Source of the DNA: Burkholderiales bacterium
GTDB lineage: Bacteria; Pseudomonadota; Gammaproteobacteria; Burkholderiales; SG8-39
Assembly: GCA_027493935.1 (NCBI GenBank)
Contig: JAOSJV010000010.1
Coordinates: 654,387-718,386, forward strand
Reading direction: 5' to 3'
Length of the DNA stretch: 64,000 nucleotides
Part shown: positions 8-26,670 of the stretch, piece after piece
How the letters are laid out: the number at the start of each line of letters is the position of its first letter
Numbering within the stretch: position 1 is the stretch's first letter
Notes under the pieces: generated by a model
What the model saw: the letters and a program-made list of their open reading frames with translations, nothing else
Databases searched by the model: none
What the model was told of the DNA's origin: nothing
Position numbers and translations under genes: made by a program

Positions 8-937
8 CTATCCGGCGAGCGCCGCGTCGACGATCCCTGCCGAAAGGAGCACGGTGAGCTGCACGAGCGACGCGAAGAAGTTGCCGAGCGCCCGCTTGCG
101 GGTGGGATTCGCGGCGAGCCGCAGGCTCATGAGCACAAAGAGCGCCCCGCCCGCCGCCGCGCCAGCGCCGTAGATCCAGCCCATGCCGTACGCCAGCGGC
201 ACGAATGACAGCGCGACGAGCGCGAGAGTGTGCGCGAGGATCGCAAGCGCACAGGCGCGGTCGCCGACCACCACCGGGAGCATCGGCACGCCGGCGGCCG
301 CGTAATCGTCGCGGCACACCATCGCCAGGCTCCAGAAGTGCGGCGGCGTCCACAGGAACAGCACCACCGCCAGGACAAGCGGCACTGCCGGCAGGCCGTC
401 GGGCACGACCGCCGCGGCGCCCGCCAGCACTGCGAAGCTGCCTGCCAGCCCGCCGATCACGATGTTCCACCACGTCCGGCGCTTGAGCCAGACGGTGTAG
501 ACCACCGCGTAGACGAACGCGCCGAGGAAGGTGTAGAGCGCAGCGAGCCAGTTGGTCGCGAGCGCCGCCGCGGCCACCGATGCCACGGTGAGCGCCGCGA
601 GCAGCGCCGGGAAGCGGCGGTCGTGCGCGAGCGCGCCAGTCACGAACGGGCGCGTCATGGTGCGCTTCATGCGCGCGTCGAGATCGCGCTCGTACCACTG
701 GTTGAAGCCGCCGGCGGCGGCCGCGGACACGAACACTGCCAGGCCGAGCACCGCGATCTGCCAGCCCGCGGGCGCCGCGCCGGGGGTCATCGCGAGCCCG
801 GCGAGGGCGGTGAACCCGATGACGACCCCGATGCGCAACTTGAACAGCCCGACCACCGTCGCAGCCGCGGCGAGCGCCCGATGGGGGGCCCGCCCGGCGC
901 CGGCCCCGGAAGGTGCGGTTTCGGTGAAGCTTGCCAT
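8..937 (-). CDS. ctaB: Protoheme IX farnesyltransferase (heme o synthase)
   Basis: Multi-TM protein with UbiA/CtaB motifs FNQWYERDLDARMKRTMTRP, YTVWLKRRT and LWTPPHFWSL; last gene of the heme-copper oxidase operon. Confidence 0.93.
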   Translation of the reverse strand: MASFTETAPSGAGAGRAPHRALAAAATVVGLFKLRIGVVIGFTALAGLAMTPGAAPAGWQIAVLGLAVFVSAAAAGGFNQWYERDLDARMKRTMTRPFVTGALAHDRRFPALLAALTVASVAAAALATNWLAALYTFLGAFVYAVVYTVWLKRRTWWNIVIGGLAGSFAVLAGAAAVVPDGLPAVPLVLAVVLFLWTPPHFWSLAMVCRDDYAAAGVPMLPVVVGDRACALAILAHTLALVALSFVPLAYGMGWIYGAGAAAGGALFVLMSLRLAANPTRKRALGNFFASLVQLTVLLSAGIVDAALAG

Positions 938-1018
938 CTCCGCATCTCCTGTGTGGTGCTCCCGTTCCCGTCCGCAGAGCTGCGCTCGCGGGGGACTTGC
1001 CCGCCCCCCTCTCGCGCG

Positions 1019-1043
1019 AGATCCCCGCTTGCGTGGGGATGAC
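1019..1043. repeat. REP/dRS3-like palindrome, single copy
   Basis: Reverse complement reads GTCATCCCCACGCAAGCGGGGATCT, the same family as GTCATTCCCGCG..GGAATCC at 24.15, 29.48 and 48.58 kb. Confidence 0.6.
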
Positions 1044-1076
1044 GCTGCGCGCGCGGCTGTCGCCGCTTGCGCAGCG

Positions 1077-2805
1077 TCACTTCAGCGGCCAGACGGTGGA
1101 CAGGTACTTCCAGTTGATGAAGTAGTACAGCACGAAGGCCACCAGGAACACGATCGCCAGGACGAACGTGCCCGAGGCGGACCAGGCGTGCGTGCCCACG
1201 CCGCCGGTCCCGGTGAGCGATGCGGCCACCGAACCGGTCGGCGCCGGCGCGACGCCATCGCGCGCCCGCACGTGCTGGAAGCCGGGCGTCTCGATCTTCT
1301 TGCCGAGGAACACCGAGTAGACGGTGACCAGCAGGTACATCGCACCGCCCACGACCGCGAGCACACCGCCGATCCCCATCAGTCCGATCATCAGCCACGC
1401 GGTGCCGGGGGAACTCGAAACCGAGCGGGTTGCCGGAGAAGGCGACGTCCCAGTGCCGGCGCGGTACGCCGAGCGTGCCCGCGCCCATCATGAACAGCGA
1501 GAACACCGTCATGCCCAGACCGAACACGTAGGGCTGCCACTTGGCCACCCCCGGGAACGCCATCTCGCGCCGGAAGAGCACCGGGATGAGGAAGTAGGTG
1601 ATCCCCATGAAGGCCATGGTCGTACCGAGCACGACCGTCGCGTGGAAGTGGCCCGGCACGTAGAACGTGTTGTGCATGATCAGGTTCAGCTGCTCGGTGC
1701 CGAGGATCACCCCGGAGATCCCGCCGAGGAAGCCGAAGCCGATGATGCTGATGAAGATCGACGAGAACACCGGGTTGCCCCACGGCGCCTTGCGCAGCCA
1801 CTCGAACAGGCCCTTGTTGAAGCCCTTCTGGCGCTGCGCCACCTCGATCGCCCCCGGCACCGTCAGGCCGTGCACCATCGACGCCAGCACGGCGAGGTAG
1901 AACGCGTAGCTCGTGTTGAGGATCTTCCACTTCGAGGTGAGGCCCGGATCGGCCAGCAGGTGGTGCGCGCTCGCGATCGTGATGAACAGGATGTAGAGCA
2001 GGAAAGCCGTGCGGCTCACCTTCTCGCTCATCGGCTTGGCGCCGAACAGGATCGCCGCGCCCGCGTACCATACCGCCACGTGCGCCGACACGTTGATCTG
2101 CTGCGAGCTGTGGCCGAAGGCCCAGAAAATGTGGCGGTACATCAGCGAGTCGATGGTCGGCACCATCCCGATCGACCACAGGAAGGTCGGGATCAGGATG
2201 ATGGCGCCGGAGGCGATCGTGAATACCGCGATGATCGCCGCGGTGAGCGCGCCGAAGGTGACGAGCGGCACCGAGCCGTTGTAGGTGCGCTCGGATTTGC
2301 CCACCGCCAAGGTGGCGAAGAAAACGAAGCAGCCGATCAGGGCGCCGACCGCGAACAGGATCAGCCCGAGATAGAACGTCCAGTGCGCGCCCATCGGCGC
2401 GTAGGCCGTGAACATCACGCTCGAGTCCTGGCGTACGAACACCGCATAGTTGTTCATCAGCCAGCCGATCACCATCAGCCAGAAGCCGGCCCACGCCCAG
2501 CGCGGCGCCGCCAGCCGGCAGTTGAGCAGCGTCGAGCCGGCGAAGTACAGCACCGCGATCTCGAAGAAGATGATCCAGAACACGAGCATGTTCAGCCCGT
2601 GGCCGGTGAGCACCATGTAGAACGCGTCGGGCGCGAGCAGGTGCACCGTCTGCCAGCGGGTCAGCGTCACCAGCAGCGCGAGGATGCCGCCGACCAGCAG
2701 CGCGACCACGCCGACCACCGCGTTCCAGCGGATCAGCGCGTCGGCCGGCTGATGGAACTTGAGGCCCGTCGTCGGGCAGGTCCGGAACATTCGATTGACA
2801 GCCAT
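1077..2805 (-). CDS. Heme-copper oxidase superfamily subunit I, eNOR-like nitric oxide reductase (frameshift at ~1407-1411)
   Basis: All six His ligands present (TGHG, FGH, AHH, GHFH). Helix VI reads FGHSSQQINV, with Gln instead of Tyr at H+4. Removing one base in a G5 run joins 787..2805 to 1077..1391 (GFEFPGTAWLMIGLMG). Confidence 0.85.
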
Positions 2806-2820
2806 GGCCGCGCCTCCCTC

Positions 2821-3378
2821 TTACTTCTTGTCGGTGACGTACAGCTTGCTCACCATCGTGTGATGGTTGATGCCGCAGTACTCGTTGCAGATGATCGAGT
2901 ACGTGCCCGCCTTGGTCGGCTGCACGGTGAGGATATGCTCGTAGTTCGGGTGCACCTGGATGTTGATGTTCTCCGGCTGCAGCGAGAAGCCGTGCAGCCA
3001 GTCGAGCGACATCAGGTGCAGGCGGTAGGTCTGGCCGGCCTCGAGCTCGAGGATCGGCTCCCACTGCCAGAGCCGGGCGACGAGATAGACGTCGCTGCCC
3101 GCGGGCGGCTTCACGACCGGGATCTTGACTTCGTTCAGCCCGGTCTCCTCGCGCACCTTGTACTTGCCGACCATCTCCTGCACCTTCGCCGTGAAGCCCT
3201 CCGGGGTGTTGCGGTAGGCCTCGTTCGAGAGGTTCTGCTTACCGAACACGTGCCAGTACGGCATCATGAAGAACAGGAACATGCACCAGACGAAAGCCAT
3301 CAAGATCCAGGTGATCTCCACCTTCTCGATCGGCTCCTTCCACCACAGCCGGTTGGACGGCGGCTGAATCGCGCTCAT
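2821..3378 (-). CDS. Heme-copper oxidase subunit II with CuA site (eNOR subunit II)
   Basis: One TM helix plus cupredoxin domain: WLHGFS...CNEYCGINHHTM. Confidence 0.9.
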   Translation of the reverse strand: MSAIQPPSNRLWWKEPIEKVEITWILMAFVWCMFLFFMMPYWHVFGKQNLSNEAYRNTPEGFTAKVQEMVGKYKVREETGLNEVKIPVVKPPAGSDVYLVARLWQWEPILELEAGQTYRLHLMSLDWLHGFSLQPENINIQVHPNYEHILTVQPTKAGTYSIICNEYCGINHHTMVSKLYVTDKK

Positions 3379-3415
3379 CTCGCTCTCCTATAGGACGTAC
3401 GTTCGCCGCGCCGCT

Positions 3416-3592
3416 TCAGGGCGCGATGGGAACGCTGACGATTTCCATCACGCCCCAGATGAGGTACAGCACCGTCGGAACCACCACGCCGAGAAAGAGC
3501 AGCATCCACGGATTGTCGAGCAGCTGCTGCATGAACGGCTCGGGCTCTTCCGGGATCTCCTCGTACGCGAGCGGCTGGTTTTTCTCGGCCAT
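3416..3592 (-). CDS. Small single-TM protein, probable accessory subunit of the eNOR-like oxidase
   Basis: 58 aa with an acidic N-terminus and hydrophobic helix (LDNPWMLLFLGVVVPTVLYLIWG); AGGAG RBS; first gene of the operon. Confidence 0.75.
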   Translation of the reverse strand: MAEKNQPLAYEEIPEEPEPFMQQLLDNPWMLLFLGVVVPTVLYLIWGVMEIVSVPIAP

Positions 3593-3713
3593 GATTGCTC
3601 TCCTTTGCAGAAACGGTTCTTGCCCGCCGCCGGCCGCGCCGATCGCATGCGACCAGCGTCCGCCTTGCGGCCTTTCGCTGCCGGAATCTACGGCACGCGA
3701 CCCGCAGCCGAAT

Positions 3714-3727
3714 TTGATGTGACTCAA
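3714..3727. promoter_or_regulatory. FNR/DNR-type box
   Basis: TTGAT-GTGA-CTCAA in the divergent eNOR/ctaA promoter region. Confidence 0.75.
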
Positions 3728-3752
3728 ATAAACCCCAGTGCTGATGGGCGGT

Positions 3753-3766
3753 TTGATCCATGTCAA
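3753..3766. promoter_or_regulatory. FNR/DNR-type box
   Basis: TTGAT-CCAT-GTCAA, the second box in the same intergenic region. Confidence 0.75.
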
Positions 3767-3804
3767 AATCCGTGCGGTCGCCGCATCGAATCATCCGCAT
3801 CGCC

Positions 3805-4894
3805 GTGTCGGATCGAACGTCGCTCGCCTTGCGCTCGCCCACCACAGTTCCGCTGCGCGGCGCGGCGCCCGAGCGCGCCGTGGCAGCCTGGCTGCTCGTT
3901 TGCGCCGCGCTCGTGTTCGCGATGGTCGTCGTGGGGGGCGTCACCCGGCTCACCCACTCCGGTCTGTCGATCGTCGAGTGGCAGCCGATCGTGGGCACCC
4001 TGCCGCCGCTGTCCGATGCCGATTGGATCGCGACCTTCGAGAAATACAGGCAGACGCCCGAGTACCTTCAGGTCAACCGGGGCATGAGCCTGGCGCAGTT
4101 CAAAGGCATCTTCTGGTGGGAGTACTTCCACCGACTGCTCGGCCGGCTGATCGGCATCGTGTTCTTGGTCCCGTTCGTCTGGTTCTGGATTCGCGGCCGG
4201 ATCGGCCGGCCGCTCGCCTGGAAGCTCCTCGGCGTGTTCGTGCTCGGCGGCCTGCAAGGCGCGATGGGCTGGTACATGGTGATGAGCGGGCTCGTCGACG
4301 ATCCGCGCGTGTCGCACTTCCGGCTGACCGCGCATCTCTCGATCGCCTTCCTGATCTTCGCCGCGCTCCTGTGGATCGCGATGAGCCTCCTCGCCCCGCG
4401 GCCGGCGGCCGGGCCGGGTGCGCGCGGGCCCGCCCGGCTCGGGTGGTGGATCACCGGCTTGATCGCGTACATGGTCGTCAGCGGCGGCTTCGTGGCGGGA
4501 ATCCGCGCCGGGAAGGCCTACAACACCTTCCCCCTCATGAACGGGCACGTGGTGCCGCCCGAGATCTTCATGATCGAACCCTGGTGGCAGAACTTCTTCT
4601 ACAACATGGCCACGGTCCAGTTCGACCACCGCCTCCGGGGCGTGGATGCTCGCGCTCCTGGTGCCGTGGTTCTGGCTGCGCACCCGCCGGACCGAGCTGC
4701 CGGTGCGCGCGCGCATCGCCGCCCACCTGCTCCTCGCCGCGCTCGTGGTCCAGATCACGCTCGGCATCACGACGCTACTGCTCGGCGTGCCGGTCGCGCT
4801 CGGGGCCGCGCATCAGGGCGGCGCAGTCGTGCTGCTCGCCGCGGCGTTGCTCGCGAACCACGCCCTGCGGAGGACCGGAGACGCGAAGGCGTGA
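3805..4894 (+). CDS. ctaA: Heme A synthase, COX15/CtaA family (frameshift at ~4635; start uncertain)
   Basis: [32 protein letters not shown] motifs. The C-terminus ([16 protein letters not shown]) continues in ORF 4646..4894. Confidence 0.9.
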
Positions 4895-5007: not shown

Positions 5008-5615
5008 TCAGCCGGCGGCGAGCGCCACGAGCTCGGGGTCGTCGAAATGGTCGATCAGGATGCGCCGCACCCGTTCCTGCCACAGTGCGCGGAACTCGCG
5101 CTGCTCGGCGGCGCTGGCGCCGCCCGCGGCGACGCGCGGCATCAGTGCCTTCAGCCGCGGCTCGGCGGGGACGCGCTCCGGCCGGAAGCCGGCAACCACG
5201 GCGGCGCCGGTGTCTAGCCGCACGAACCGCGCCTCGCCTCCTGTCGCGGCGTTGAAATGAAGCAGATCTCTGCGGTCGAACCGGCCGCCGATCCCTTTGA
5301 ACCCGCCGGCCTGGGCTGCACCGGTGAGCAGGCCGACGACGTGCGCGATCACGCCCGTCACGCCGCTCGCGAGGTCGTCGCGGAGCTCGACCCGGATCGC
5401 GCCGCGCTCGGGCCGCGCCGCGCCGTAGAGCCGCTCGAGCGCCTTCGCGGTCATGAGATAGGCGCCGGCGACGGTGGGGCAAGAGTGGCCGGCGAGGCGC
5501 ACCGCGTCGGCGTAGCAATACTCGACGAGGCCCTCGTCGGCCGCGCCGAGGAACTCGGCAAGCGGATCGTACATGACGATGCTGCGAACATCGCCGAAAA
5601 AGGGGGATGGCTCAT
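5008..5615 (-). CDS. FmdE-like putative metal-binding protein (probable frameshift at ~5597-5601)
   Basis: [12 protein letters not shown] motif. Adding one base in the A5 run gives [19 protein letters not shown], with an ATGA overlap on the upstream stop. Confidence 0.65.
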
Positions 5616-6076
5616 GTCGCTTTCCTCTCGTTCGCGTCGACCGGCGGGCGCGCGTCGGCGGACGCCGGCTCGCCGGGCTCGCGCAGGCTCGCGCTCGCCA
5701 AGCCGAGCCAGACCATCGCCGCGATCATGCACAACCCGCCGACCGGCACCAGCAGTGGCGGCAGGCCGAGCGCGGCCGTGGCGAGGATTCCGACGGGCAA
5801 CAGCATGCCGGCGAGCGCGAGCCAGGAGATGCAGCGCGCCGAGGACGCGCCGATCGGCAGCCGCACAAGCGCGTAGCCGACGACGACGTTGATCAGGGCG
5901 AACAGGCCGCCGTGCGCGTGCGCCATGCGCGCCTCGAGGTGCTTGCCGTCCGCGTAGTCGGCGATCCACGCCTCCTTGCCGGGCGCGAGGTCGCGCAGAT
6001 AGATCAGCACGAATCCGTAGAGCATGAAGCCGGCGAGAAACAGGAAGCCGGCGGCGAGATTCTTCTTGCCCTGCAT
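5612..6076 (-). CDS. Hypothetical 4-TM membrane protein with AHAHG motif
   Basis: AGGAGG RBS; MQGKKNLAAGFLFL...EARMAHAHGGLFALIN; hydrophobic pattern. Confidence 0.7.
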   Translation of the reverse strand: MQGKKNLAAGFLFLAGFMLYGFVLIYLRDLAPGKEAWIADYADGKHLEARMAHAHGGLFALINVVVGYALVRLPIGASSARCISWLALAGMLLPVGILATAALGLPPLLVPVGGLCMIAAMVWLGLASASLREPGEPASADARPPVDANERKAT

Positions 6077-6223
6077 GAAGTCCTCCTTCGCGCGTGCCTG
6101 CGCAGCCCGATGCGCGCCACGTCCTCCAGCGCGCGGCCGCGGCGATCGCCGCCCGCCGCTGCGTGCACAGGCTACGCCGCGCGGCACCCCGCCCGATGAC
6201 GCAGATCTCCGGCGCACGTGCGG

Positions 6224-10002: not shown

Positions 10003-10019
10003 TGTAAGTGGCATGTAAG
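10003..10019 (+). promoter_or_regulatory. TGTAAG direct repeat with 11-bp period upstream of the sNOR-like operon
   Basis: TGTAAG at 10003 and 10014, about 50 bp upstream of the start codon. Confidence 0.35.
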
Positions 10020-10070
10020 AGCGGGATCGTACAGAAGCATCCAACCGAAGCGAACGGAGGAGAGCGTTCC

Positions 10071-11036
10071 ATGCGCAGTCTCTTGATGCCCGCTCTGATA
10101 TTCACGCTGGCGCTCGCCGGCCCGGCCCGCGCCGACCCGGCGGCCGAGGGCAAGGTCCTGTTCGAGCAGAAATGCGCCTCGTGCCACACCATCGGCGGCG
10201 GCGACCGCATCGGGCCGGACCTGCACGGCGTCGCCGAGCGCCGGCCGCAGGAGTGGCTGCTGCGCTTCGTCACCGAGCCGGACAAGATGATCGCGGCCAA
10301 GGACGAGGTCGCGGTGCGCCTGTACGAGAAGTACAACCGCATCATCATGCCCAACCTCGGTCTCGCCGAGAACGACGCGCGCGCGCTGCTCGCGCACATC
10401 CAGGCGGCGAGCTCGGCCACCCCGCCGGCTGCGGCAGCCCCGCCGACACCGCTGCGTATGCCGCGGCCGCAGCTCATCGCGCCGCAGTCCACCATTCTCG
10501 TGGCTTTCCTCGCGCTTGCGGCCGTGATCATCGCGGTCTTCGCCTGGGTCGCGCTCAGCACCCGCTCGCCCGCCGAGGTCGACGTGAAAAAGGCGTACGG
10601 GGTGCGCAAGATCTTCTTCGTCACCGCCAGCGTCGTGCTCGTCGCGCTGCTCATCGCGACGCTGCCGCGCGCGCCGTACGCCGGCGCCGACGTCAAGCCG
10701 GACCGCATCGTGCACGTCGCCGCGCGGCAATTCGACTTCGTTTTCTCCGACGAGCCGATCGTCAGCGCGTCCGACCTCGGCCGCGTGCCGACCATCCAGC
10801 GGCTCGAGCTGAAAGCGGGCGCGCTGGTCGAGTTCCGCGTCACCGCGCTCGACGTGAACCACGGATTCGGCCTGTACGGGCCGCAGCGCCAGCTCCTCGC
10901 CCAGACCCAGGCGATGCCGGGCTACGTCAACCGGCTGGTGGTGCGGCTCGCCGAGCCCGGCCAGTACAAGGTGTTCTGCCTCGAGTACTGCGCCGCCGGG
11001 CACCATCTCATGCAGTCCGGCGTCACGGTGAACTGA
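10071..11036 (+). CDS. Cytochrome c - CuA subunit II fusion (sNOR NorS-like)
   Basis: Signal peptide, CASCH heme c motif with distal MP, Pro/Ala linker, 2 TM helices, CuA domain (VNHGFG...CLEYCAAGHHLM); GGAGGAG RBS. Confidence 0.88.
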   Translation: MRSLLMPALIFTLALAGPARADPAAEGKVLFEQKCASCHTIGGGDRIGPDLHGVAERRPQEWLLRFVTEPDKMIAAKDEVAVRLYEKYNRIIMPNLGLAENDARALLAHIQAASSATPPAAAAPPTPLRMPRPQLIAPQSTILVAFLALAAVIIAVFAWVALSTRSPAEVDVKKAYGVRKIFFVTASVVLVALLIATLPRAPYAGADVKPDRIVHVAARQFDFVFSDEPIVSASDLGRVPTIQRLELKAGALVEFRVTALDVNHGFGLYGPQRQLLAQTQAMPGYVNRLVVRLAEPGQYKVFCLEYCAAGHHLMQSGVTVN

Positions 11037-11060
11037 GGCGACCCAGGAAGGAAATCGACG

Positions 11061-12482
11061 ATGCGCGCCATCTATTCGCAAACGCTCTACTGGATCGCGG
11101 TCACCTTCGTGCTGTTCCCGATCCTCGTCCTGCTCGGCATCTACATGCGCACGGTCCAGGCCGGGGGACTCGCCGGGCTCGACGCGTGGTTCTATCCGAT
11201 GATGACGCTGCACGGCGTCGGCATGGTCGGGGTCTGGTACGTGGCCTCGATGGCCTGCGCCGCCAACGTGCTGGCGAAGTACGTCGCGCCGTCGCCGGCA
11301 ATCGGGCGGCTCGCGCTCGTCGGCACGGTGATCGGCGTGGTGCTGCTGCTCGTCTGCGTGTTCCTGGGCCGGTTCGCCGCCGGCTGGTACTTCCTGTACC
11401 CGCTGCCGTTCAAGGGCGAGTGGCCGGCCTGGGCGGCGGTGGTGTTCCTGCTCTCGCTCACCGTGCTCGGCGCCACCTGGCTCGTCTGGTCGCTCGATCT
11501 CCTGCGCGCGATCGCTTCCAAGTACTCGCTGTCGCAGGCGCTCGGCTGGCACTATCTCTCCGGCAGCGGCGAGCTGGCGCTGCCGCCCGCGGTCCTGATC
11601 ATCACCGTCAGCCTGATCGCCTCGGTCGCGGCGCTGGTCGCCGGCGTGGTGGTGCTGGTGCTGTTCTACTTCGAGCTGCTGATCGGCGCGCCGAGCGACG
11701 CGCTGCTCATGAAGAACCTGATCTTCTTCTTCGGCCACACGCTGGTGAACCTCGCCATGTACCTCGGCGTGGCGCTCGCCTACGAGGTGCTGCCGCAATA
11801 CGCCGGACGGCCGTGGAAGACCAACAAGATCGTGGTGATCTCGTGGAACACCGTGCTCCTGATCGTGCTCGTCGCGTACTTCCACCACCTCTACATGGAC
11901 TTCGTGCAGCCCGGCGTGCTGCAGTACATCGGCCAGATCGCCTCGTACGCGAGCGCGATCCCGGCCGCGGTGGTCACGATCTTCGGCGCGCTGCTGCTCG
12001 TCTACCGCGCGAAGATGCGCTGGAACCTGGCCTCGATCCTGTTCTACCTCGGCCTGGTGGGCTGGGCGATCGGCGGGGTCGGCGCGGTGATCGATTCCAC
12101 CATCAGCGCCAACGTGCGGTTGCACAACACGCTGTGGGTGCCGGCGCACTTCCACACCTACATGGTGGCGGGGCTGGTGTTCCTGGTGGTGGCCTACTTC
12201 TATCACGCGTGCCAGGAGGCGAGCGCCGCGCCCGAATCCACCGGCTACCACAAGCTGCTCGCGGCGCTGCTGGTGATCGGCGCCTACGGCTTCTTTCTCA
12301 TGTTCTACCTGTCCGGGGCCTACTCGGTGCCGCGGCGCTTCGCGCTCTACCCGGCGGAGCTCGGGCACGGCGCGGTGTACTCGGGCATCGCGGCGGCCTT
12401 TGCGGCGGTGTTCCTGCTCGGCTTCGTCCTGTACCTCGTCGAGACCGGGCGGCGCTGGCTCAAGGCGGTGCAGGCGGCCTGA
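11061..12482 (+). CDS. Heme-copper oxidase superfamily subunit I, sNOR (NorY)-like nitric oxide reductase
   Basis: TLHG, FFGHTLVN (Asn instead of Tyr at H+4), YFHH and PAHFH motifs; followed by an SCO gene as in norSY-senC. Confidence 0.82.
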   Translation: MRAIYSQTLYWIAVTFVLFPILVLLGIYMRTVQAGGLAGLDAWFYPMMTLHGVGMVGVWYVASMACAANVLAKYVAPSPAIGRLALVGTVIGVVLLLVCVFLGRFAAGWYFLYPLPFKGEWPAWAAVVFLLSLTVLGATWLVWSLDLLRAIASKYSLSQALGWHYLSGSGELALPPAVLIITVSLIASVAALVAGVVVLVLFYFELLIGAPSDALLMKNLIFFFGHTLVNLAMYLGVALAYEVLPQYAGRPWKTNKIVVISWNTVLLIVLVAYFHHLYMDFVQPGVLQYIGQIASYASAIPAAVVTIFGALLLVYRAKMRWNLASILFYLGLVGWAIGGVGAVIDSTISANVRLHNTLWVPAHFHTYMVAGLVFLVVAYFYHACQEASAAPESTGYHKLLAALLVIGAYGFFLMFYLSGAYSVPRRFALYPAELGHGAVYSGIAAAFAAVFLLGFVLYLVETGRRWLKAVQAA

Positions 12483-14401: not shown

Positions 14402-15202
14402 ATGGATTTTCTGCCACCCGCCAAGCTGCTCGACGAGATCGAGACGGCGAGCAAGAAGAAAGCCGGCCTGCCGGTGCGCAACATGCTGCTCACCGGCTTT
14501 CTGTCCGGCGCGCTGCTCGCGTACGCCACCGCCTTTGCGTTCAAGGTCTCCGACGGGCTGCCGGGCGGGGCCACCTGGCTCGTCGCCGGAGCCGTGTTCC
14601 CGGTGGGCTTCGCAATCATCACCCTCCTCGGGCTGGAGCTCGCCACCGGCAATTTCGCGCTGATGGCGGTCGGTGTTGCGCGCGGCGGCACGTCCGTTCG
14701 GCAGACGCTGCGCAACTGGACCTGGGTCTATCTGGGGAACTTCGCCGGCAGCGTGTTCGTGGGCGGCCTGCTCGCCGTCGCACTCACCGCCGCCTTCACC
14801 CACGGCGGCGGCCCGCTCGGCGAGCGCATCGTCGCCGTGGCCGAGTCCAAGACCCTCGCCTATGCGCACGCCGGCGGCGCCGGCTGGCTCACCGCATTCG
14901 TCGAGGGCGTCCTGTGCAACTGGATGGTCACGCTCGGCTCGGTGCTCGGGCTGAGCTCGACCTCGAGCATCGGCAAGATCGCCGGCGTGTGGCTGCCGAT
15001 CTCGGTGTTCTTCGCGCTCGCGCTCGAGCACTCGATCGTCAACATGTTCGTCATCCCGACCGCGATGGTGCTGGGCGCGCCCATCAGCGCCGGGCAATGG
15101 CTGTGGTGGAACCAGCTTCCGGTGACACTCGGCAACATCGTCGGCGGCGCGGTGCTCACCGGCCTGCTGCTGCACCACGGTCACCGCATGGCACGCGCGT
15201 AG
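14402..15202 (+). CDS. Formate/nitrite transporter (FNT) family channel
   Basis: FPVGF, ELATGN, NFAGS, GVLCNWMV, EHSIVNM and TLGNIVGG motifs. Confidence 0.92.
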   Translation: MDFLPPAKLLDEIETASKKKAGLPVRNMLLTGFLSGALLAYATAFAFKVSDGLPGGATWLVAGAVFPVGFAIITLLGLELATGNFALMAVGVARGGTSVRQTLRNWTWVYLGNFAGSVFVGGLLAVALTAAFTHGGGPLGERIVAVAESKTLAYAHAGGAGWLTAFVEGVLCNWMVTLGSVLGLSSTSSIGKIAGVWLPISVFFALALEHSIVNMFVIPTAMVLGAPISAGQWLWWNQLPVTLGNIVGGAVLTGLLLHHGHRMARA

Positions 15203-15227
15203 CGGCGCAGGCCCGCGCGGCGCCGCT

Positions 15228-16877
15228 TCAGTGCAGCAGCTTCTCGAGCGCGCGGATGCGCGCGGGCGGCTCCATGTCGAGGTGCTTGCGCAGTGCAGCA
15301 CGGCAGCACTCGTACTGCTGGCGCGCCTCGACGACGCGGCCGGCGCTCGCGAGCTGGGCGACGAGCAGCTCGTACAGGTCGAGCGCCACCGGCTCGAAAT
15401 CGAGCGCGGTGCGCAGCGTCCAGATGGCCTCGTCGGTGTGCCCCCAGCGGATGCGCATGGCGGCGAGCGAGCGGGCGGCGTCGAGATACATGTGCCGCAG
15501 CCGGACGCGGTGGGTCTCGAGCGATTCGTCCTCGGTGTCGTCGGCGAACAGGTCGCCGCGGAAGAGCCGGACCGCGTCCTCGAGCAGGCCGAGCGCACGC
15601 TGCTCCGCGCCTTCGCGCTGCGCGCTGCGCGCAGTGGCGATGAAATCGAGGAAGTCGAACAGATCGACCGAGTGCGGCGCCTCCGTGTTGAAAAAGTAGT
15701 GATCGTCGCGGCACACGATGTACTCGGAGGCGCGCGCCCCTCGCCCGGATTCGATCGCCGAGCGCAGCGCGTTCACCACGCCGTGCAGCCGGTTGGCGCC
15801 CGCGCGCGGCGACGCCTCGGGCCAGAGCAGCTCGACGAGCCGGTCGCGATGCACCGGAATGCCGCGCCGCAGCACGAGCTGCTTCAGCAGCTGCAGCGCC
15901 TTGCGGCGCGCGAACGCGTCGGGGGCCAGTTTTTGCCCGCTGCGGAAGATCTCGAACGGACCGAAGCAGCGCAGGGCGAGGCGTGCCGAGGGCAGGTCGG
16001 TGCAGCGCGTCGGCAGCACGCGGCGCGGCACCGCGAGCGGAATGATCGACCGCACCGCCTCGAGCACGCGTACGCCCCATTCCATCGGCACCGAACCATC
16101 GCGCCAGCCCACGCCCACGTACCCGAGCGGACGGCCGCCCTCGACCAGCGGGACGCCGAGAAACGAGCGGATCCCGCAGCGCTTGACCTCGCCGCGCAGG
16201 AACAGGCGGTCTTTCTGGAACCGGTTTGTGAAGAGCGGCTTCTGCAGCAGCGTCACGGTGCCCGGGTAGCCGGCGCCGAGCGGCATGTGCGTGAGCTGCA
16301 TGAACGCTTCGCGATCGTAGCCCTCGCAGTCCACGAGAAAGACCTCCTTCCCGGCGGTGTCGAGCACGAAGAGCTCGCAGTCGTCGGCGGCGCAGACACG
16401 GCGCAGGCCCTCGAGCGTGCTCTCGATGGAGCCCAGGCGCTCGGCGAGCGCGCCGCGGATCACCACCGCTTCCAGCCACGCGCTGCCGAACCCCCGGCCG
16501 TCACGTGCGACAGGGGGAAACCACACCAGCGCACCGTGCGACGGGTCGGACAGCGGCAGGATGGCGCAGTGCATCGGCGGCGACGCCTCGGACCGCGCGT
16601 CGCGCGCGAGCGCGGACCGCGCCCCGTTCGCACCGGGACAGCGCGCACACCGCGCGTCGGGCCGGCCGTGATGGCGCTCGGCCACGACGTCCCAGCAGAA
16701 CCGTCCCACCGCCGACTTGGCGGGCACGCGCAACGCCCGCGCGGTGGCATCCGGCCACGCCCGGATGCGGAACCGGCCGTCCACCCAGAAAAAAGGGACG
16801 AAACGGCTCGCCCCGCTCCAGCTCACCCGAGACAGGCAATCAACGACCCCGCGCCTTTGATCGTGCGCACCGATCAT
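15228..16877 (-). CDS. Transcriptional regulator: Cys-rich PAS-like + GAF + winged-helix/BTAD (SARP-like); start uncertain
   Basis: LRCFGPFEI, RDRLVELLWPE, VDLFDF, LFRGDLF and LDMEP BTAD signature; GAF segment (GAGYPG, SFLGVPL); N-terminal FCWDV..CARCP..HC. Confidence 0.8.
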   Translation of the reverse strand: MIGAHDQRRGVVDCLSRVSWSGASRFVPFFWVDGRFRIRAWPDATARALRVPAKSAVGRFCWDVVAERHHGRPDARCARCPGANGARSALARDARSEASPPMHCAILPLSDPSHGALVWFPPVARDGRGFGSAWLEAVVIRGALAERLGSIESTLEGLRRVCAADDCELFVLDTAGKEVFLVDCEGYDREAFMQLTHMPLGAGYPGTVTLLQKPLFTNRFQKDRLFLRGEVKRCGIRSFLGVPLVEGGRPLGYVGVGWRDGSVPMEWGVRVLEAVRSIIPLAVPRRVLPTRCTDLPSARLALRCFGPFEIFRSGQKLAPDAFARRKALQLLKQLVLRRGIPVHRDRLVELLWPEASPRAGANRLHGVVNALRSAIESGRGARASEYIVCRDDHYFFNTEAPHSVDLFDFLDFIATARSAQREGAEQRALGLLEDAVRLFRGDLFADDTEDESLETHRVRLRHMYLDAARSLAAMRIRWGHTDEAIWTLRTALDFEPVALDLYELLVAQLASAGRVVEARQQYECCRAALRKHLDMEPPARIRALEKLLH

Positions 16878-17075
16878 ACTCCCGATTCGCGCAACCTCCG
16901 GCGCGGGCGGCGGTGGTGATCCGGCCGGGCACGGCAGGCGCCGGGGATGACGCACCCGCCGCCGCGTCGGGCACCCGCACGACCGGACGCCGTCGTTGGC
17001 GGCCAAGCGCGCAGCGCCGGTTTCATCTGCGTCACGCCCGCACCCCTGTACGGGTGGCGCAGGCGCCGGCCAAAG

Positions 17076-17204
17076 CAAGTAGGAACACCGTGCGCGAGCC
17101 CTCCCCGCGAGGGATCGGCACTCCGAGTGTGCCTATCGGGGGCGGGAATCCTCGAGGCTCTCGATCGCGCTCGCGCTGGGATCCCGCGCCGTGCTGACTA
17201 CTTG
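17076..17204. repeat. 129-bp element with imperfect terminal inverted repeats (MITE-like)
   Basis: Left end CAAGTAGGAACACCGTGCGCG versus right-end reverse complement CAAGTAGTCAGCACGGCGCGG; internal hairpin GGCAC..GTGCC. Confidence 0.4.
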
Positions 17205-17250
17205 GGCGACGGACCACGCACGAATGACGACCTTCTGCTGCGCTTCTCGG

Positions 17251-17622
17251 TCAGCCCGGTCGGCGGCCTCGCGGGGTCCCCTCGAGGTACTCCCTGAGCA
17301 CCGCCGCACTGCTGCGCTCGGGCGCGCGTGCCGCGAACACGAGCGTCACCGGACCGCGGCGCAACGCTTCGCGCAGCGGCGCCAGCGCCGCGTCGTGCTG
17401 CGCGAGCTCGTCCAGATAGCGGCGACGGAACTCGGGCCATTTCGCTGCATCGTGGCCGTACCACGTGCGCAGCGCGGCGCTCGGCGCCACGTCCTTCAGC
17501 CACGTCTCGACCGCGAGCGCTTCCTTGGTCACGCCGCGCGGCCAGAGACGCTCGACCAGGAACCGCCTGCCGTCGGCGCGCCCGGCCGGTTCGTAGGCGC
17601 GCTTTAGCCGGATTCGCCCCAT
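17251..17622 (-). CDS. DUF488/YeaO family protein
   Basis: IRLKRAYE..DGRRFLVERLWPRG..WLKDVAPS..LRTWYGH. Confidence 0.88.
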   Translation of the reverse strand: MGRIRLKRAYEPAGRADGRRFLVERLWPRGVTKEALAVETWLKDVAPSAALRTWYGHDAAKWPEFRRRYLDELAQHDAALAPLREALRRGPVTLVFAARAPERSSAAVLREYLEGTPRGRRPG

Positions 17623-17764
17623 GGCGTCGATTCTACGGCGCGCCGCGGCGGGCGGCACGCCGGCGGGGACTGCGCGGCCCGGGCTGCGCAGCCCGTGTCG
17701 GAAGCGTCGGCGCGCTAGAATCGCCGCCGCCGCAATCCGCGGCCCGACCTAGGGAGTGCAGAGC

Positions 17765-18019
17765 ATGAACGCCGTGCGCAGTGCCATCGCAGTCTTTGCC
17801 ATCGCCGTAGCGAACTCGGCCTGGGCCTACCAAGTCACCGGACCGGTACTGGAGGTAACCGACGCGAAGATCGTGGTGCAAAAGGGCAAGGAGAAGTGGG
17901 AGATCGCCCGCACGCCGGGCACCAAGGTCAGCGGCAACCTGAAGGTGGGCGCTCAGGTCACCGTCGAGTACTCGATGACCGCAAAATCCATCGACGTCAA
18001 GCCGGCCAAGGGCAAGTAG
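17765..18019 (+). CDS. Small secreted beta-rich hypothetical protein (OB-fold-like)
   Basis: Signal peptide ending AWA; YQVTGPVLEVTD..LKVGAQVTVEY; GGGAG RBS. Confidence 0.75.
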   Translation: MNAVRSAIAVFAIAVANSAWAYQVTGPVLEVTDAKIVVQKGKEKWEIARTPGTKVSGNLKVGAQVTVEYSMTAKSIDVKPAKGK

Positions 18020-18075
18020 CAGCGCACGCGGGTACGGCCGGGGGCATGGCTGCTGCCGGCCCCCCGGGGCGCCGG

Positions 18076-19635
18076 TCAGTGGCTGGTGCCCTCCGAGCGC
18101 GTGATCTTGTTGTGGACGTTGTACTTGCCCACCGGCCGCCTCATCGGCAGTCGCTTCACTTCCCGGAACGTCGCCGCGTCGTAGATTACGAGCGCGCCGT
18201 CCATCTCCCATACCGAGACCAGCGCATGGCGGCCGTCGCGCGTGAACTCGACGTGCGCGGCGGTCTTCCCGGGAGCGGGCGTCACCGACGCCACCACCTC
18301 GAGCGAGCGCTTGTCGATGATCTGCAGCGTGTCCTTCTTCGGGCTCATCATCGCGTCCACCCAGGCGTAGGGTGTGGCCTCGTGGCTGCGCATGAAGAAG
18401 CCCGGGCCATTGGTCGGGATCTGCCGCACCAGTTGCCAGCGCTTGACGTCGATCACGCTGACCACACCCTCCTTGAGATTGGGCGTGGCCATCACCCGCG
18501 AGCCGCCGTGCTCCCACGTGATGCCCGAGCCGAGGTGGGGCATGCCCGGCAGGTCGAGGTCGGCGATCTTGCGGCGCACGTCGAGGTGTACCACCTGGCC
18601 CTTGCGGCCCTCGCTGCGCGAGGCGCCCATCAACTGGCTGTAGTCCGGCGTGAAGAAGAAGTCGTCCAGGTAGTCCTGCAGCATCGAGCGGCGCGGGTTG
18701 AGGAAGCCGGGGACGAACGCGCCCTCCCGGTACCGGAAATCGTGGATCATCCCGGTCGGAATCTCGGGCGCCTTCGGGTCGTAGCTGATCTCCCAGACCT
18801 CCGGGATGTCCTTCAGCGCGGCGACGAAGCTCCTGCGCGGGGCGGCGGTATACACCGCGGACACGCGCGAGGTGCGCTCGCCCTTGCCGTCGACCACAGC
18901 CAGCAGCTTCACCGGGCGAAGGTCCGCGTCCAGCACCACGAGCGTGTGCGGCAGGTAGTTGCCCACCATCACGTGCTTCCCGTCGCCCGACACCGCGGCG
19001 TTGCGGGTGTTCAGACCGGCGCGGATCTCGGCGATCATGCGCAGGTTCCACAGGTCGTACTTCGAGATCCAGCCGTCGCGCGAGGCGAAATAGACGAAGC
19101 GGCCATCGGGCGAGAACTTGGGCCCGCCGTGCAGCGCGTAGCGGCTGGCGAAGCGCGCGAGCGGCGTGAAGCGGTCGCCGTCGAGGACCGTGACGTGATG
19201 GTCGCCCGCCTCCACGACCACGAAGAGGTTCAGCGGGTCGGCGTCGAACGCGGGCTTCGCCGGCAGCAGCGCGGTATCGGCGTGTACCACGCGCGAGGCC
19301 CGGATGTCGTCGAGCCCCCACTCGGGTTTCGTCGCCGGCTCGGCGTAGACGTAGGCGACCAGCGCGTCGATCTCGTCCGGCGCGAGCCTGTCCGCGAAGC
19401 CCGGCATTTGCGTGGCGACGCGGCCCTCGGCGATGACCTGCGCCGCGGCCGGCCTGCGCAGCCGCTCCAGATTCGACGGCAGCAGCGCCGGGCCCGTGCC
19501 GCCGAAGCGGTCGGCCCCATGGCATGCGGCGCAGTGCTCCGCGTACAGTTCGGCGGCCGCACTCACCGCCGCGGCCGGCGGCACGGTTGCGGCGAGCGCC
19601 AGCGCTAGCATCATCGCCGCACGCGCGCGCCTCAT
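18076..19635 (-). CDS. nirN: NirN, cytochrome c/d1-domain protein of heme d1 maturation
   Basis: CAACH heme c motif plus d1 beta-propeller (LHGGPKFS, MPHLGSG, FFMRSHE, GKYNV); last gene of the nir operon. Confidence 0.92.
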   Translation of the reverse strand: MRRARAAMMLALALAATVPPAAAVSAAAELYAEHCAACHGADRFGGTGPALLPSNLERLRRPAAAQVIAEGRVATQMPGFADRLAPDEIDALVAYVYAEPATKPEWGLDDIRASRVVHADTALLPAKPAFDADPLNLFVVVEAGDHHVTVLDGDRFTPLARFASRYALHGGPKFSPDGRFVYFASRDGWISKYDLWNLRMIAEIRAGLNTRNAAVSGDGKHVMVGNYLPHTLVVLDADLRPVKLLAVVDGKGERTSRVSAVYTAAPRRSFVAALKDIPEVWEISYDPKAPEIPTGMIHDFRYREGAFVPGFLNPRRSMLQDYLDDFFFTPDYSQLMGASRSEGRKGQVVHLDVRRKIADLDLPGMPHLGSGITWEHGGSRVMATPNLKEGVVSVIDVKRWQLVRQIPTNGPGFFMRSHEATPYAWVDAMMSPKKDTLQIIDKRSLEVVASVTPAPGKTAAHVEFTRDGRHALVSVWEMDGALVIYDAATFREVKRLPMRRPVGKYNVHNKITRSEGTSH

Positions 19636-20831
19636 GTCGCCGCCGCCTTTCTGCGGCTATACGGCGACACCGACAATCGCGCGCGCTCGGGCGCGACGCC
19701 GATCTCCTCGTCGTCCAGGTAGCAGCCCGGGTCCTCCTCCCACGCGTCGCCGGTCAGGCTGCGCGCGCGGGTGCGGGTGTTCCCACCGCACACGTCGAAG
19801 TAGGCGCACGCGCCGCAGCGGCCCTTGATCGAGCGCGGGCTCGCCTTGAGGCCCGCCATGATCGGGTCGGAGTCGTCCCGCCAGATCTCCGAGAAGGCCC
19901 GCTGGCGCACATTGCCGAGCGTGTAGTCCCACCAGTAGGTGTCCGGATGCACGTCGCCGATGTTGTCGATGTTCGCGACGTTCACGCCGGAGCTGTTGCC
20001 GCCCCACTGCGCGAGCTTCGCGCGCACGTGCGCTTCCATGTGCGGCAGGTTGCGCCGCACCCACAAGAGAAAGTACACGCCGTCGGCGTCGTTGTTGCCG
20101 GTCACGAACTCCTTTGCGAGACCGCGCGACTGGCGGTCCCAGCACGTGTCGAACAGGAGATCCATCGCGCGGCGCGTGGTGGCGAGGTAGGCGTCGTGCC
20201 GACGGTTCACGTTGCCTCGTCCGGCGTAATTCAGATGCGACAGGTAGAACTTGTCGATGCCCTCGGACTCGGTCAGCGCGAGAAGCCATGGCAGGTCGTC
20301 GCGATTCGCCTCGGTCAGCGTGAAGCGAACGCCGATCTTGATGCCGGCGTCGCGGCAGCGGCGCAGCGCGTCGATCGAGGCGTCGAACGCACCGGCCTTG
20401 CGCCGGAACCGGTCGTGGGTCGCGCGCCGCCCGTCCAGACTGATGCCGACGTAGTCGAAGCCGACCTCGGCGACGCGGGCCACGTGCGGCGCGTCCATCA
20501 GCGTGCCGTTGGTCGAGAGCGCGGTATAGAACCCCTCGGCTCTCGCGCGGTGCGCGATGTCGAAGATGTCTGGCCTGAGCAGCGGCTCGCCGCCGGAGAG
20601 AATGAGCACCGGCACGCCGAAGCGCTTGAGGTCGTCCATGACGCCGAACACCTCTGCGGTGGACAGCTCGCCCGGGAAGTCGATGTCGGCGGACACCGAG
20701 TAGCAGTGCCGGCACGTCAGGTTGCACCGCCGGATCAGGTTCCAGATCACCACCGGTCCCGGTGGATTGCGCTTCGGCCCCACCGGCGTCGGCGCTGCCA
20801 GCTCCTGCATGAATTGCGAGACGCGGAACAT
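19632..20831 (-). CDS. nirJ: Heme d1 biosynthesis radical SAM protein NirJ
   Basis: GPVVIWNLIRRCNLTCRHCY; C-terminal SPASM-type cysteines. Confidence 0.93.
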   Translation of the reverse strand: MFRVSQFMQELAAPTPVGPKRNPPGPVVIWNLIRRCNLTCRHCYSVSADIDFPGELSTAEVFGVMDDLKRFGVPVLILSGGEPLLRPDIFDIAHRARAEGFYTALSTNGTLMDAPHVARVAEVGFDYVGISLDGRRATHDRFRRKAGAFDASIDALRRCRDAGIKIGVRFTLTEANRDDLPWLLALTESEGIDKFYLSHLNYAGRGNVNRRHDAYLATTRRAMDLLFDTCWDRQSRGLAKEFVTGNNDADGVYFLLWVRRNLPHMEAHVRAKLAQWGGNSSGVNVANIDNIGDVHPDTYWWDYTLGNVRQRAFSEIWRDDSDPIMAGLKASPRSIKGRCGACAYFDVCGGNTRTRARSLTGDAWEEDPGCYLDDEEIGVAPERARLSVSPYSRRKAAAT

Positions 20832-20848
20832 CGCAGGTTTCTCCTTTT

Positions 20849-20956
20849 CCCCTCCTCTCCGAGGGGTGCCGGCGAAGCCGGCGGGGTGGTGACCGCCGAT
20901 CGGGACTCGAGCCACCCCGGCTGCTTCGCAGCCACCCCTGCTCGAAAAGGAGGGGA
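20849..20956. repeat. Palindromic repeat family 2, copy 1
   Basis: CCCCTCCT...GCCGGCGAAGCCGGCGGGGTGGT...ACCCCGGCTGCTTCGCAGCCACCCCT...AGGAGGGG; an inverted related copy lies at 46691-46803. Confidence 0.7.
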
Positions 20957-20976
20957 AAAGGAACCAGGCAACGCCT

Positions 20977-21477
20977 TCACTCCGCTCTCAACCGCAACCC
21001 CGTCTTCTTCAGGATCCGCCTGCTGTAGAGCACCTCGTGCGCGCGCGCCGCGTCGCCGAGCAGCGCGGCGATCTCGCCGACGTGCGCGCCGACCTCGTCG
21101 CGCGTGCGGCCGTGGACCATCGCGAACAGGTTGTAGCGCCAGCGCGGCGGCACGCGCGGCCGGCGATAGCAGTGGCTCACGAACGCGAGCGCGCCCACCT
21201 GCGGGCCGAGCGCCGCAATGCGGTCGTCCGCGACGTCCCACACCGACATGCCGTTCGCCGGGTAGCCGAGCGCGTAGTGGTTCGGCACCGCGGCGATGCG
21301 CCGGATCACGCCGAGCGACTTCATGCGGGCGAGCCGCGCCATCACCTCCTCGGCCGACAGCCCGAGCGAGCGCGCCACCGCGTGGTAGGGCTCGACGGCG
21401 AGCGGCAGTCCGCCCTGCGTCGCGAGGATGATCGCGCGGTCGGTCTGATCCAGCCGGATCTCGGCGGGCGCGTTCAT
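20977..21477 (-). CDS. nirH: Siroheme decarboxylase subunit NirH
   Basis: Lrp/AsnC-like; VPNHYALGY, VSHCYRR, YNLFAMVH, ILKKTG. Confidence 0.9.
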   Translation of the reverse strand: MNAPAEIRLDQTDRAIILATQGGLPLAVEPYHAVARSLGLSAEEVMARLARMKSLGVIRRIAAVPNHYALGYPANGMSVWDVADDRIAALGPQVGALAFVSHCYRRPRVPPRWRYNLFAMVHGRTRDEVGAHVGEIAALLGDAARAHEVLYSRRILKKTGLRLRAE

Positions 21478-21479
21478 TG

Positions 21480-21923
21480 CTACACGGCGATGCGCAGATC
21501 GAGGAAGTACTCGTCGAGCTTGGGCAGGTCGAGCACCGCGAGCCCCGTCTCCCGCTCGATGTCGGCGATCACGCGGGCAACCGCCTCGGGCCGCTCGCAC
21601 GCAACCACGAACCACATATTGAGCGCGTGCTCGCGCTCGTAGTTGTGCGCCACTTCCGGGTGCGCGTTCACGAGCGCGGCCACGCGATCGAAATCCGCGG
21701 CCGGGACGCTCATCGCGGCGAGCGTGAAGGCGCCGCCCATCGCCGTCGCGTCGTACATCGGGCCGAAGCGCGTGAGCGCACCGTCGGCGAGCAGGCGCGC
21801 GATGCGCGCGAGGAGCGCGTCCTCCTCCACGTCGAGCGCGGCGGCCACCGGTGCAAACGGCCGCGCGGCGACCTCGACGCCGTGCTGCAGCCGGTTCACG
21901 ACGGCGCGGTCGAGCTCATCCAT
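21480..21923 (-). CDS. nirG: Siroheme decarboxylase subunit NirG
   Basis: RFGPMYD, VAHNYEREH, NMWFV. Confidence 0.9.
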   Translation of the reverse strand: MDELDRAVVNRLQHGVEVAARPFAPVAAALDVEEDALLARIARLLADGALTRFGPMYDATAMGGAFTLAAMSVPAADFDRVAALVNAHPEVAHNYEREHALNMWFVVACERPEAVARVIADIERETGLAVLDLPKLDEYFLDLRIAV

Positions 21924-22956: not shown

Positions 22957-22958
22957 GG

Positions 22959-24254: not shown

Positions 24255-24618
24255 CGCGCAATCCGTTCTGCAGCTGATCCACGATCCAGGCCGCCTCCGC
24301 CTCGCTCACGAATGGCCGCCAGGGCGGCATCGCGGTGCCAGGCCGCCCGTTGACGATCGTGAGCGCGAGGCTCTCGGCCGGCTTGTCGCGCAGGGCGTCG
24401 GGCGTGAGCGGCGGCCCCAGCCCGCCTTTGAGCATCATGCCGTGGCAGGACCCGCAGTCCTGGCGCACGAGCGTGACGAGCTCGCGCTGCCGTTCCACGC
24501 GCGGTCCCGCGCCGCCGCCGGCAGCCGCAGCGGCCGTCACGGCGAGCGCGGCGGAGGTCACGATCAGGAGGGCTGGGAGGAGTCGCACGGCGCAGGTCAC
24601 GGTCCGGATTACCGCCAT
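24238..24618 (-). CDS. nirC: Cytochrome c55X NirC (start uncertain)
   Basis: RQDCGSCHG..KGGLGPPL..GRPGTAMPPW. Confidence 0.92.
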   Translation of the reverse strand: MAVIRTVTCAVRLLPALLIVTSAALAVTAAAAAGGGAGPRVERQRELVTLVRQDCGSCHGMMLKGGLGPPLTPDALRDKPAESLALTIVNGRPGTAMPPWRPFVSEAEAAWIVDQLQNGLRDETRQ

Positions 24619-24644
24619 GATCCGGATTTGCGCCGCCGGCGAAT

Positions 24645-24658
24645 TTGATGCACCTCAA
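24645..24658. promoter_or_regulatory. FNR/DNR-type box upstream of nirC
   Basis: TTGAT-GCAC-CTCAA located between the nirS terminator and nirC. Confidence 0.7.
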
Positions 24659-24701
24659 GCACGCTGCACGGCACGCAACCGCGTTTCTCCCGCACACCGG
24701 C

Positions 24702-24728
24702 AAAAAAACGGGGGCGTCGCGTCCCCGC
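24702..24728 (-). terminator. Rho-independent terminator of nirS
   Basis: Minus strand CGGGGACGCGACGCCCCCG followed by T7. Confidence 0.75.
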
Positions 24729-24772
24729 TTCCGCCGGCCGCGCGCGGCGGCCGGCTCCCCTTGCGAGCGCCC

Positions 24773-26533
<1,761 letters not shown>

Positions 26534-26605
26534 TCAGCGCGATTGGAGATCAGGACGGATTCGCATTCACCTCGACCAATGTAGGGATACCCGGAGCGCC
26601 CGACC

Positions 26606-26619
26606 TTGACTTGCGTCAA
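26606..26619. promoter_or_regulatory. FNR/DNR-type box upstream of nirS
   Basis: TTGAC-TTGC-GTCAA. Confidence 0.8.
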
Positions 26620-26670
26620 ACAGCGTGCCGTCTGGAGCAGGAGGACATACCCTGACGCTGCCGCGCACGT

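Follow-up and report, generated by a model that had tools for sequence, protein, structure and literature searches.

A locus for a probable eNOR-family nitric oxide reductase and its cofactor-assembly genes in a wastewater Burkholderiales bacterium

Analysis of a 64,000-nucleotide stretch of DNA from a Burkholderiales bacterium (assembly GCA_027493935.1, contig JAOSJV010000010.1, positions 654,387 to 718,386; hereafter the window) indicated that five genes at positions 8-4894 form a locus which very probably encodes an intact nitric oxide (NO) reductase of the eNOR family together with its cofactor-assembly genes. The host is a wastewater betaproteobacterium and the locus lies within a denitrification gene island. 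Four of the genes are carried by the minus strand, in the order small open reading frame (ORF), subunit II, subunit I and ctaB, and the fifth, ctaA, is divergent on the plus strand. The coordinates and the profile matches thus confirmed the arrangement proposed by an earlier reading of the nucleotide letters (the sequence-only reading), which had placed ctaB in the operon and ctaA divergent from it.

The operon is headed by an ORF coding for a 58-residue single-pass membrane protein (3592..3416, minus strand), the ATG of which is preceded by an AGGAGA-type ribosome-binding site; a profile search of this product gave no Pfam or NCBIfam match. Subunit II (3378..2821, minus strand, 185 residues) is composed of one N-terminal membrane helix and a cupredoxin domain with a CuA site. 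The CuA pattern is complete, H129 and C164-N-E-Y-C168-G-I-N-H172-H-T-M175 with E166 among the ligands, and the matches of the protein to TIGR02866 (CoxB) and PF00116 were under the cut-offs of these profiles. A non-coding spacer (2806..2820), 15 nt as written and one base short, separates it from subunit I (2805..1077, minus strand), which matched PF00115 at 223.6 bits. The subunit I gene is written in two frames, 2805..1402 and 1406..1077, and codes for about 575 residues once a surplus base is removed. The last gene of the operon inside the window, ctaB (937..8, minus strand), codes for a heme o synthase of 309 residues that matched TIGR01473 at 250.3 bits, against a cut-off of 210.3, and also PF01040 (UbiA). 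The divergent ctaA gene (3760..4894, plus strand), coding for a heme a synthase of the COX15 family, is likewise written in two frames, 3760..4638 and 4637..4894; PF02628 matched it in two pieces, at 321.8 bits (profile positions 2-251) and 45.9 bits (253-321), and the match to the heme A synthase model NF045570 was below the cut-off.

Related loci were sought in species-representative genomes using as query five sequences that carry, like subunit I of the window, two consecutive Gln residues in helix VI (QQ sequences). Relatives were encoded in 583 of the 599 matched stretches. All locus counts given here refer to the 80 best of these stretches, which showed 69-91% identity; Rhodothermus marinus, Accumulibacter and other published eNOR members are not among them, and many of the 80 loci are interrupted by contig ends. 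The gene order is kept in these loci, with subunit II in 79/80, ctaB downstream in 59/80 and a divergent ctaA in 33/80. The small ORF lies directly 5' of subunit II in 78/80, at 40-86% identity, and its product is probably a small third subunit of the enzyme.

With the small ORF as the head of the operon, the divergent intergenic region shared by both transcription units covers positions 3593-3759, that is 167 bp up to the first ATG of the ctaA frame. Two sites, each with one mismatch to TTGAT-N4-ATCAA, which we take to be the consensus of FNR/Dnr/NnrR boxes, were located in the divergent region, TTGATGTGACTCAA at 3714..3727 and TTGATCCATGTCAA at 3753..3766. Only three sites with one mismatch to this consensus occur in the whole window, the third being elsewhere. 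The shorter pattern TTGA-N6-TCAA was identified in the divergent region of 31 of the 33 relatives with a divergent ctaA; of the 71 loci with enough sequence, 56 have it in the 300 nt preceding the small ORF, compared with 0/80 control segments inside subunit I. Expression under low O2 or NO, as put forward by the sequence-only reading, would be consistent with these two candidate boxes and their conservation. The start of ctaA is uncertain, between 3760 and about 3880; the ATG at 3760 falls inside the second box, so that the true start is probably located farther downstream. Contigs of an RNA run (X16) covered parts of ctaB, of subunits I and II and of the small ORF, and did not extend in ctaA beyond 3791. 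This absence of cover is uninformative on ctaA expression, and RNA libraries can contain DNA.

Inspection of the subunit I sequence revealed that helix VI reads ...WAFGHSSQQINV..., that is W-A-F-G-H232-S-S-Q-Q236-I-N-V, with Gln236 at the position of the Tyr that is cross-linked in oxygen reductases. The six canonical His residues, H69, H232, H281, H282, H386 and H388, are all present and were invariant in an alignment of nine sequences (A1). The motif FGHSSQQINV, the intact His ligands and the intact CuA site, as listed in the sequence-only reading, were all found as described. The signature of the R. marinus eNOR given in Dataset S1 of PMC11214002 comprises Q-245, at the position of Y-237 of ba3, Y-256, S-318, H-321 and, in subunit II, E-(II)21. 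Residues Q236, Y247, S309 and H312 of the window protein correspond to the R. marinus numbers at a constant offset of 9, and E21 of its subunit II matches E-(II)21. The distance from Q236 to Y247 is 11 residues, the same as that from Q-245 to Y-256, and the spacing between the Tyr and the Ser is 62 residues, as in R. marinus, while it is 61 in ba3. According to Dataset S5 of the same paper, the cross-link Tyr is kept in every subfamily from B1 to B9, while eNOR keeps two of the three hole-hopping residues and is without this Tyr.

The ba3-type O2 reductases of the B family carry GHPxVY, with the Tyr four residues past the CuB His, where Gln236 stands here. The cNOR and qNOR enzymes, as described in PMC11214002, have a Glu as fourth FeB ligand and neither a CuA subunit nor a cytoplasmic proton channel, while a CuA subunit and an analogue of the K-channel are present at this locus. 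The sNOR and bNOR families, which are likewise B-family-derived, CuA-linked NO reductases without the Tyr, have Asn at its position. The Gln at the Tyr position, the channel residues, the CuA subunit, the context of ctaB, ctaA and sco1, and a fully supported QQ clade all argue for the eNOR assignment already made in the sequence-only reading, and to judge from its sequence the locus is a typical case of this family, which has been published before.

Among the 80 related loci, the motif GHS[SA]QQ was present in all (GHSSQQ in 79, GHSAQQ in one) and the S-x-x-H motif in 76. A tree of 25 representatives, in which the R. marinus eNOR is not included, showed that the QQ proteins, one haloarchaeal sequence among them, formed a clade with 100/100 support apart from the GHPxVY oxidases of the B family. 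This clade was nested in a grade of archaeal sequences of the type GH..QY (P0159, P0165, P0171 and P0189; some from Hodarchaeales and Thermoproteota metagenome-assembled genomes), which keep the cross-link Tyr, have an invariant Gln one residue before it and have the S-x-x-H motif in common with the eNOR clade. On these features they look like Tyr-retaining relatives that gave rise to eNOR. One of them, P0159, carries a Tyr at residue 245 together with Y256, S318 and H321, which are the residue numbers of the R. marinus enzyme; the agreement was set aside as a coincidence, since Dataset S1 of PMC11214002 gives a Gln at 245 and its Dataset S5 lists eNOR without the Tyr. No protein named as that of R. 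marinus was found in the clusters of six distant representatives. The homolog of Castellaniella defragrans DSM 12141 is 70% identical to subunit I of the window. This genome gave seven PF00115 matches, among which the homolog is the only one of B type, and Dataset S6 of PMC11214002 records for C. defragrans one A-family enzyme, two C-family enzymes, one cNOR, one qNOR and one eNOR, with no B-family enzyme entered.

The working of the enzyme can be proposed by analogy with the characterised family member. The R. marinus eNOR is reported to reduce NO, not O2, and to have both of its heme sites occupied by heme As, a modified form of heme a (PMC11214002). In the window enzyme, electrons from a periplasmic donor would enter at CuA in subunit II and pass through the low-spin heme (H69 and H388) to a binuclear site, in which the high-spin heme (H386) is paired with a metal that has H232, H281 and H282 as ligands; there, two NO would be converted to N2O. 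Gln236 would stand in for the cross-linked Tyr needed in O2 reduction. Protons would be taken up from the cytoplasm via the K-channel analogue, formed by E21 of subunit II, Y247, H312, S309 and Q236, so that NO reduction may be electrogenic and energy-conserving. The a-type heme would be supplied by ctaB and ctaA, and since CtaA needs O2, maturation of the enzyme would be expected only in the presence of some O2, that is under microoxic conditions. Both divergent transcription units would probably be driven by a regulator of the FNR/Dnr/NnrR type at low O2 or with NO, and the NO would be supplied by the product of nirS, a cd1 nitrite reductase gene at a distance of 15-25 kb.

As written, subunit I shifts frame in a run of five G at 1407-1411 (plus strand) and ctaA shifts frame at the CC of 4635-4636. 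These breaks are assembly indels and not gene breaks, because Logan contigs from three DNA runs, each of a different study (X1, X2 and X3), have one base fewer both at 1407 and at 4635. Over these stretches the contigs were otherwise identical to the window. An additional C behind position 2815, in the non-coding spacer, was present in all four runs, the RNA run included, which gives three indels and zero substitutions within 4.1 kb, the signature of a consensus error. More than 100 homologs, of 570-576 residues and up to 90% identity, run uninterrupted over the break in subunit I as ...GFEFPGTAWLMIGL... Both parts of subunit I were identified in 79/80 related loci; in the rows listed, the second part starts at the end of the first or at most about 50 bases from it, and the common frame of the two parts was checked by hand in one locus. 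A scan for coding frame, a Viterbi heuristic based on codon usage of which the count is rough, found both breaks again and placed the onset of the ctaA coding signal near 3788. Along the 880 kb contig carrying the window (C10) it flagged 165 places where the frame switches on the same strand with no stop nearby, next to 804 coding segments of at least 300 nt, and a homopolymer of four or more lies beside 89 of the 165 candidates. The view that subunit I and ctaA are truly frameshifted pseudogenes of a decaying operon has in its favour that the window as written contains both frameshifts and that a read-through ORF of 672 residues, as deposited, is present in the protein collection. Its probability is next to negligible in view of the run contigs, the pattern of indels without substitutions, the abundance of similar candidates on the contig and a genome completeness of 86.6% despite only 17 contigs. 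An assembly rich in single-base indels means that apparent pseudogenes in this genome are not trustworthy and need to be checked against reads.

Several points weigh against the reading of the locus as that of an intact eNOR. The window may have been assembled from the sample of one of the three DNA runs, the other two being independent. The comparison with the characterised R. marinus enzyme is based on residue numbers from the literature and, indirectly, on the C. defragrans homolog, and for the NO reductase activity, the heme a or As, the identity of the B-site metal, the proton uptake and the regulation the proposal draws on that enzyme and on knowledge of the family. Moreover, several Tyr residues are invariant or nearly so in the QQ clade: Y223 and Y271 in 80/80, and Y300 with Y303, in helix VIII, in 75/76. 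Of these, the Tyr-retaining sister sequences lack Y223, Y300 and Y303, while they share Y271, which is invariant in alignment A1. These residues give some ground to the alternative that the protein is still an O2 reductase, namely a variant of the B family whose missing helix VI Tyr is made up for by one from a different helix, as in cbb3. The cross-link Tyr of cbb3 belongs to helix VII, where it precedes the His pair by six residues, and this position is also Tyr in the cbb3 CcoN of the host genome (Y-M-W-A-G-P-H-H). The same position is Ile275 in the window protein and was never Tyr among the 80 loci (Leu in 76, Ile in 4). On geometric grounds, Y271, which lies ten residues or about 15 Å below the His pair of helix VII, is estimated to be too deep for H232. 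The gene is moreover located in a nirS island behind FNR-type boxes, and the R. marinus enzyme is reported not to reduce O2 with a range of donors (PMC11214002), which argues against a functional Tyr substitute. A retained O2 reductase is therefore very improbable.

Slightly better, but still slim, are the chances that Y300, Y303, Y223 (helix VI) and Y271 (helix VII) constitute a new proton or electron donor arrangement replacing the lost His-Tyr cofactor. Were this so, the chemistry of eNOR, or a residual reaction with O2, would rely on a Tyr of a different helix, and the arrangement would add a third independent solution to the helix VI Tyr of the A and B oxidases and the helix VII Tyr of cbb3. 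Similarly unlikely is that the enzyme reduces NO for detoxification or carries out another reaction of nitrogen oxides, the respiratory step being left to one of two further B-derived NOR-like enzymes encoded in the genome, an sNOR-like one at 10008-12482 and an nNOR-like one on another contig (C1). A detoxification role is raised as well in the preprint 10.64898/2026.01.22.701106. On the contrary, the conserved K-channel analogue and the CuA entry point fit a respiratory enzyme, contigs of the RNA library cover parts of the operon, and eNOR transcripts were described as abundant in Accumulibacter and Ferrigenium under conditions of denitrification (PMC11214002; 10.64898/2026.01.22.701106).

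The two heme synthase genes had been called dedicated in the sequence-only reading, and this was borne out only in part. Three copies of ctaB were identified in the genome, the other two being located beside an A-family oxidase (contig C14) and beside the nNOR-like gene (C1), and it is plausible that the copy at the locus is operon-specific. The ctaA gene of the locus is the only canonical COX15 gene found in the 86.6%-complete assembly; it may thus serve the A-family oxidase as well, and the term is unsupported for it. The one other COX15 match in the genome scored 109 bits and is linked to a heme-copper oxidase-like (HCO-like) gene left of the window. The combination of a heme whose synthesis is linked to O2 with an NO reductase had been singled out as notable; it is already in print in PMC11214002, which states that eNOR expression needed microoxic conditions, and the puzzle is also discussed in the preprint 10.64898/2026.01.22.701106. 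The eNOR family itself, its Gln-for-Tyr site, the a-type heme, the CtaA linkage and the need for some O2 were all published in 2024.

Beyond ctaB the operon continues directly left of the window (G000:C10:640001-654600). The sco1 gene (SCO1/SenC) adjoins ctaB and is followed by a gene for a cytochrome b/2Fe-2S/FAD/NAD fusion, whose frame is broken, probably by an indel, by a gene of 166 residues of no assigned kind and by a gene for a cytochrome b/4Fe-4S/FlpD protein, which is also split. Farther on are a divergent HCO-like gene of 492 residues without the His pair of helix VII, another COX15-like gene, which is also divergent, and a DUF2249 gene. In the 80 related loci the cytochrome b/2Fe-2S gene was found 61 times and FlpD 23 times. 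The same genes are described for the eNOR cluster of Ferrigenium straubiae (10.64898/2026.01.22.701106), where eNOR II, eNOR I, heme o synthase and sco1 come first and the cytochrome b/Fe-S/FAD/NAD fusion and the cytochrome b/Fe-S protein next; as described there, that operon is without ctaA, while a divergent ctaA is present at the window locus.

Comparison with the eNOR family of Murali et al. 2024 (PMC11214002; R. marinus DSM 4252) revealed the same Gln for Tyr, the same spacing of the S-x-x-H motif, the Tyr and the Glu of subunit II, a CuA subunit II, linkage to ctaB, sco1 and ctaA, and occurrence in wastewater Burkholderiales. No departure was found in this comparison, which was made by the published residue numbers and descriptions. 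When the 90%-identical homolog P0005 was searched against the PDB, only ba3 and A-family oxidases were retrieved and no solved eNOR structure. The best solved relative is the ba3 oxidase of Thermus thermophilus (B1; PDB 1EHK and 3S8F), at an E value of about 1e-49 for residues 60-502 of P0005. The two have in common the six His, the CuA subunit and an analogue of the K-channel, in which a Tyr occupies the position of ba3 Y248. They differ in that ba3 has GHPIVY with the cross-linked Y237 where Q236 stands here, has T312 where the window protein has H312, and is one residue shorter between helices VI and VIII.

Since close relatives are encoded in hundreds of species genomes, the locus has little general weight as a novelty. 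Proteins of this kind are deposited as 'cbb3-type cytochrome c oxidase subunit I', and because of this annotation a capacity for NO reduction is easily missed. The stretch was recovered at least partly in 20 metagenome runs from 12 studies of bioreactors, sludge, activated sludge and biofilm. Within the window, the denitrification island covers positions 14420-29428. It starts with a formate/nitrite transporter (14420-15193, by Pfam domains) and a GAF-BTAD regulator (15234-16787), followed by a full nirS cluster of the nirS-nirCFDLGHJN type (18085-29428) about 15 kb from the eNOR locus, in which Pfam domains identified nirN, nirJ, nirH, nirG, nirDL, nirF, a c-type cytochrome, nirS (cd1 nitrite reductase, 24776-26500), a NosR/NirI-like gene and nirE. 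Elsewhere in the genome narG is present. None of the seven PF00115 matches of the genome was a cNOR or a qNOR by its active-site motif, no NOR-specific profile having been run, and searches of the 86.6%-complete assembly for nirK (TIGR02376) and nosZ of clade I or II (TIGR04244 and TIGR04246) gave only sub-threshold cupredoxin matches. From the sequences, one genome thus appears to hold eNOR, sNOR-like and nNOR-like enzymes. Unless the lack of nosZ stems from the 13% of the genome that is missing, denitrification in this organism ends at N2O; as a wastewater or bioreactor denitrifier with nirS, three B-derived NOR-type enzymes and no nosZ found, it is a candidate N2O emitter.

Some further features were observed in the window and in the rest of the genome. 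Past ctaA, on the opposite strand, a region at 5008-6217 (minus strand) carries genes for an FmdE-domain protein (5008-5574) and an unannotated membrane protein of 201 residues (5612-6217); both were found in 0/80 related loci and are therefore outside the conserved cluster. Further candidate indels on contig C10 are located, for example, at window positions 7719, 32222 and 39518, the one at 7719 being inside a gene of the pyridine-nucleotide-disulfide-oxidoreductase/SelD type and adjoining a run of five C. Boxes of the form TTGAC-N4-GTCAA were identified in the denitrification island at 26606, 28455 and 28482. The second B-derived NOR-type operon of the window (10008-12482, plus strand) codes for a CuA subunit II fused to cytochrome c (10008-11036) and a subunit I of 473 residues (11061-12482). 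This subunit I reads GHTLVN, with the Asn at the Tyr position that is Gln in the eNOR of the window, and its N230, Y234, Y241, E242 and T306 are all five sNOR residues of Dataset S1 (PMC11214002) at the right spacing. The nNOR-like HCO is encoded outside the window on the plus strand (C1:2420346-2421923); it has a Glu at the Tyr position (AHNLME), Tyr residues at +11 and +17, and G-H-T-M for G-H-x-H, which would imply that the low-spin heme has a His and a Met as ligands. It departs from the listed nNOR channel residues at two positions, and genes for a CuA-type subunit II and ctaB adjoin it.

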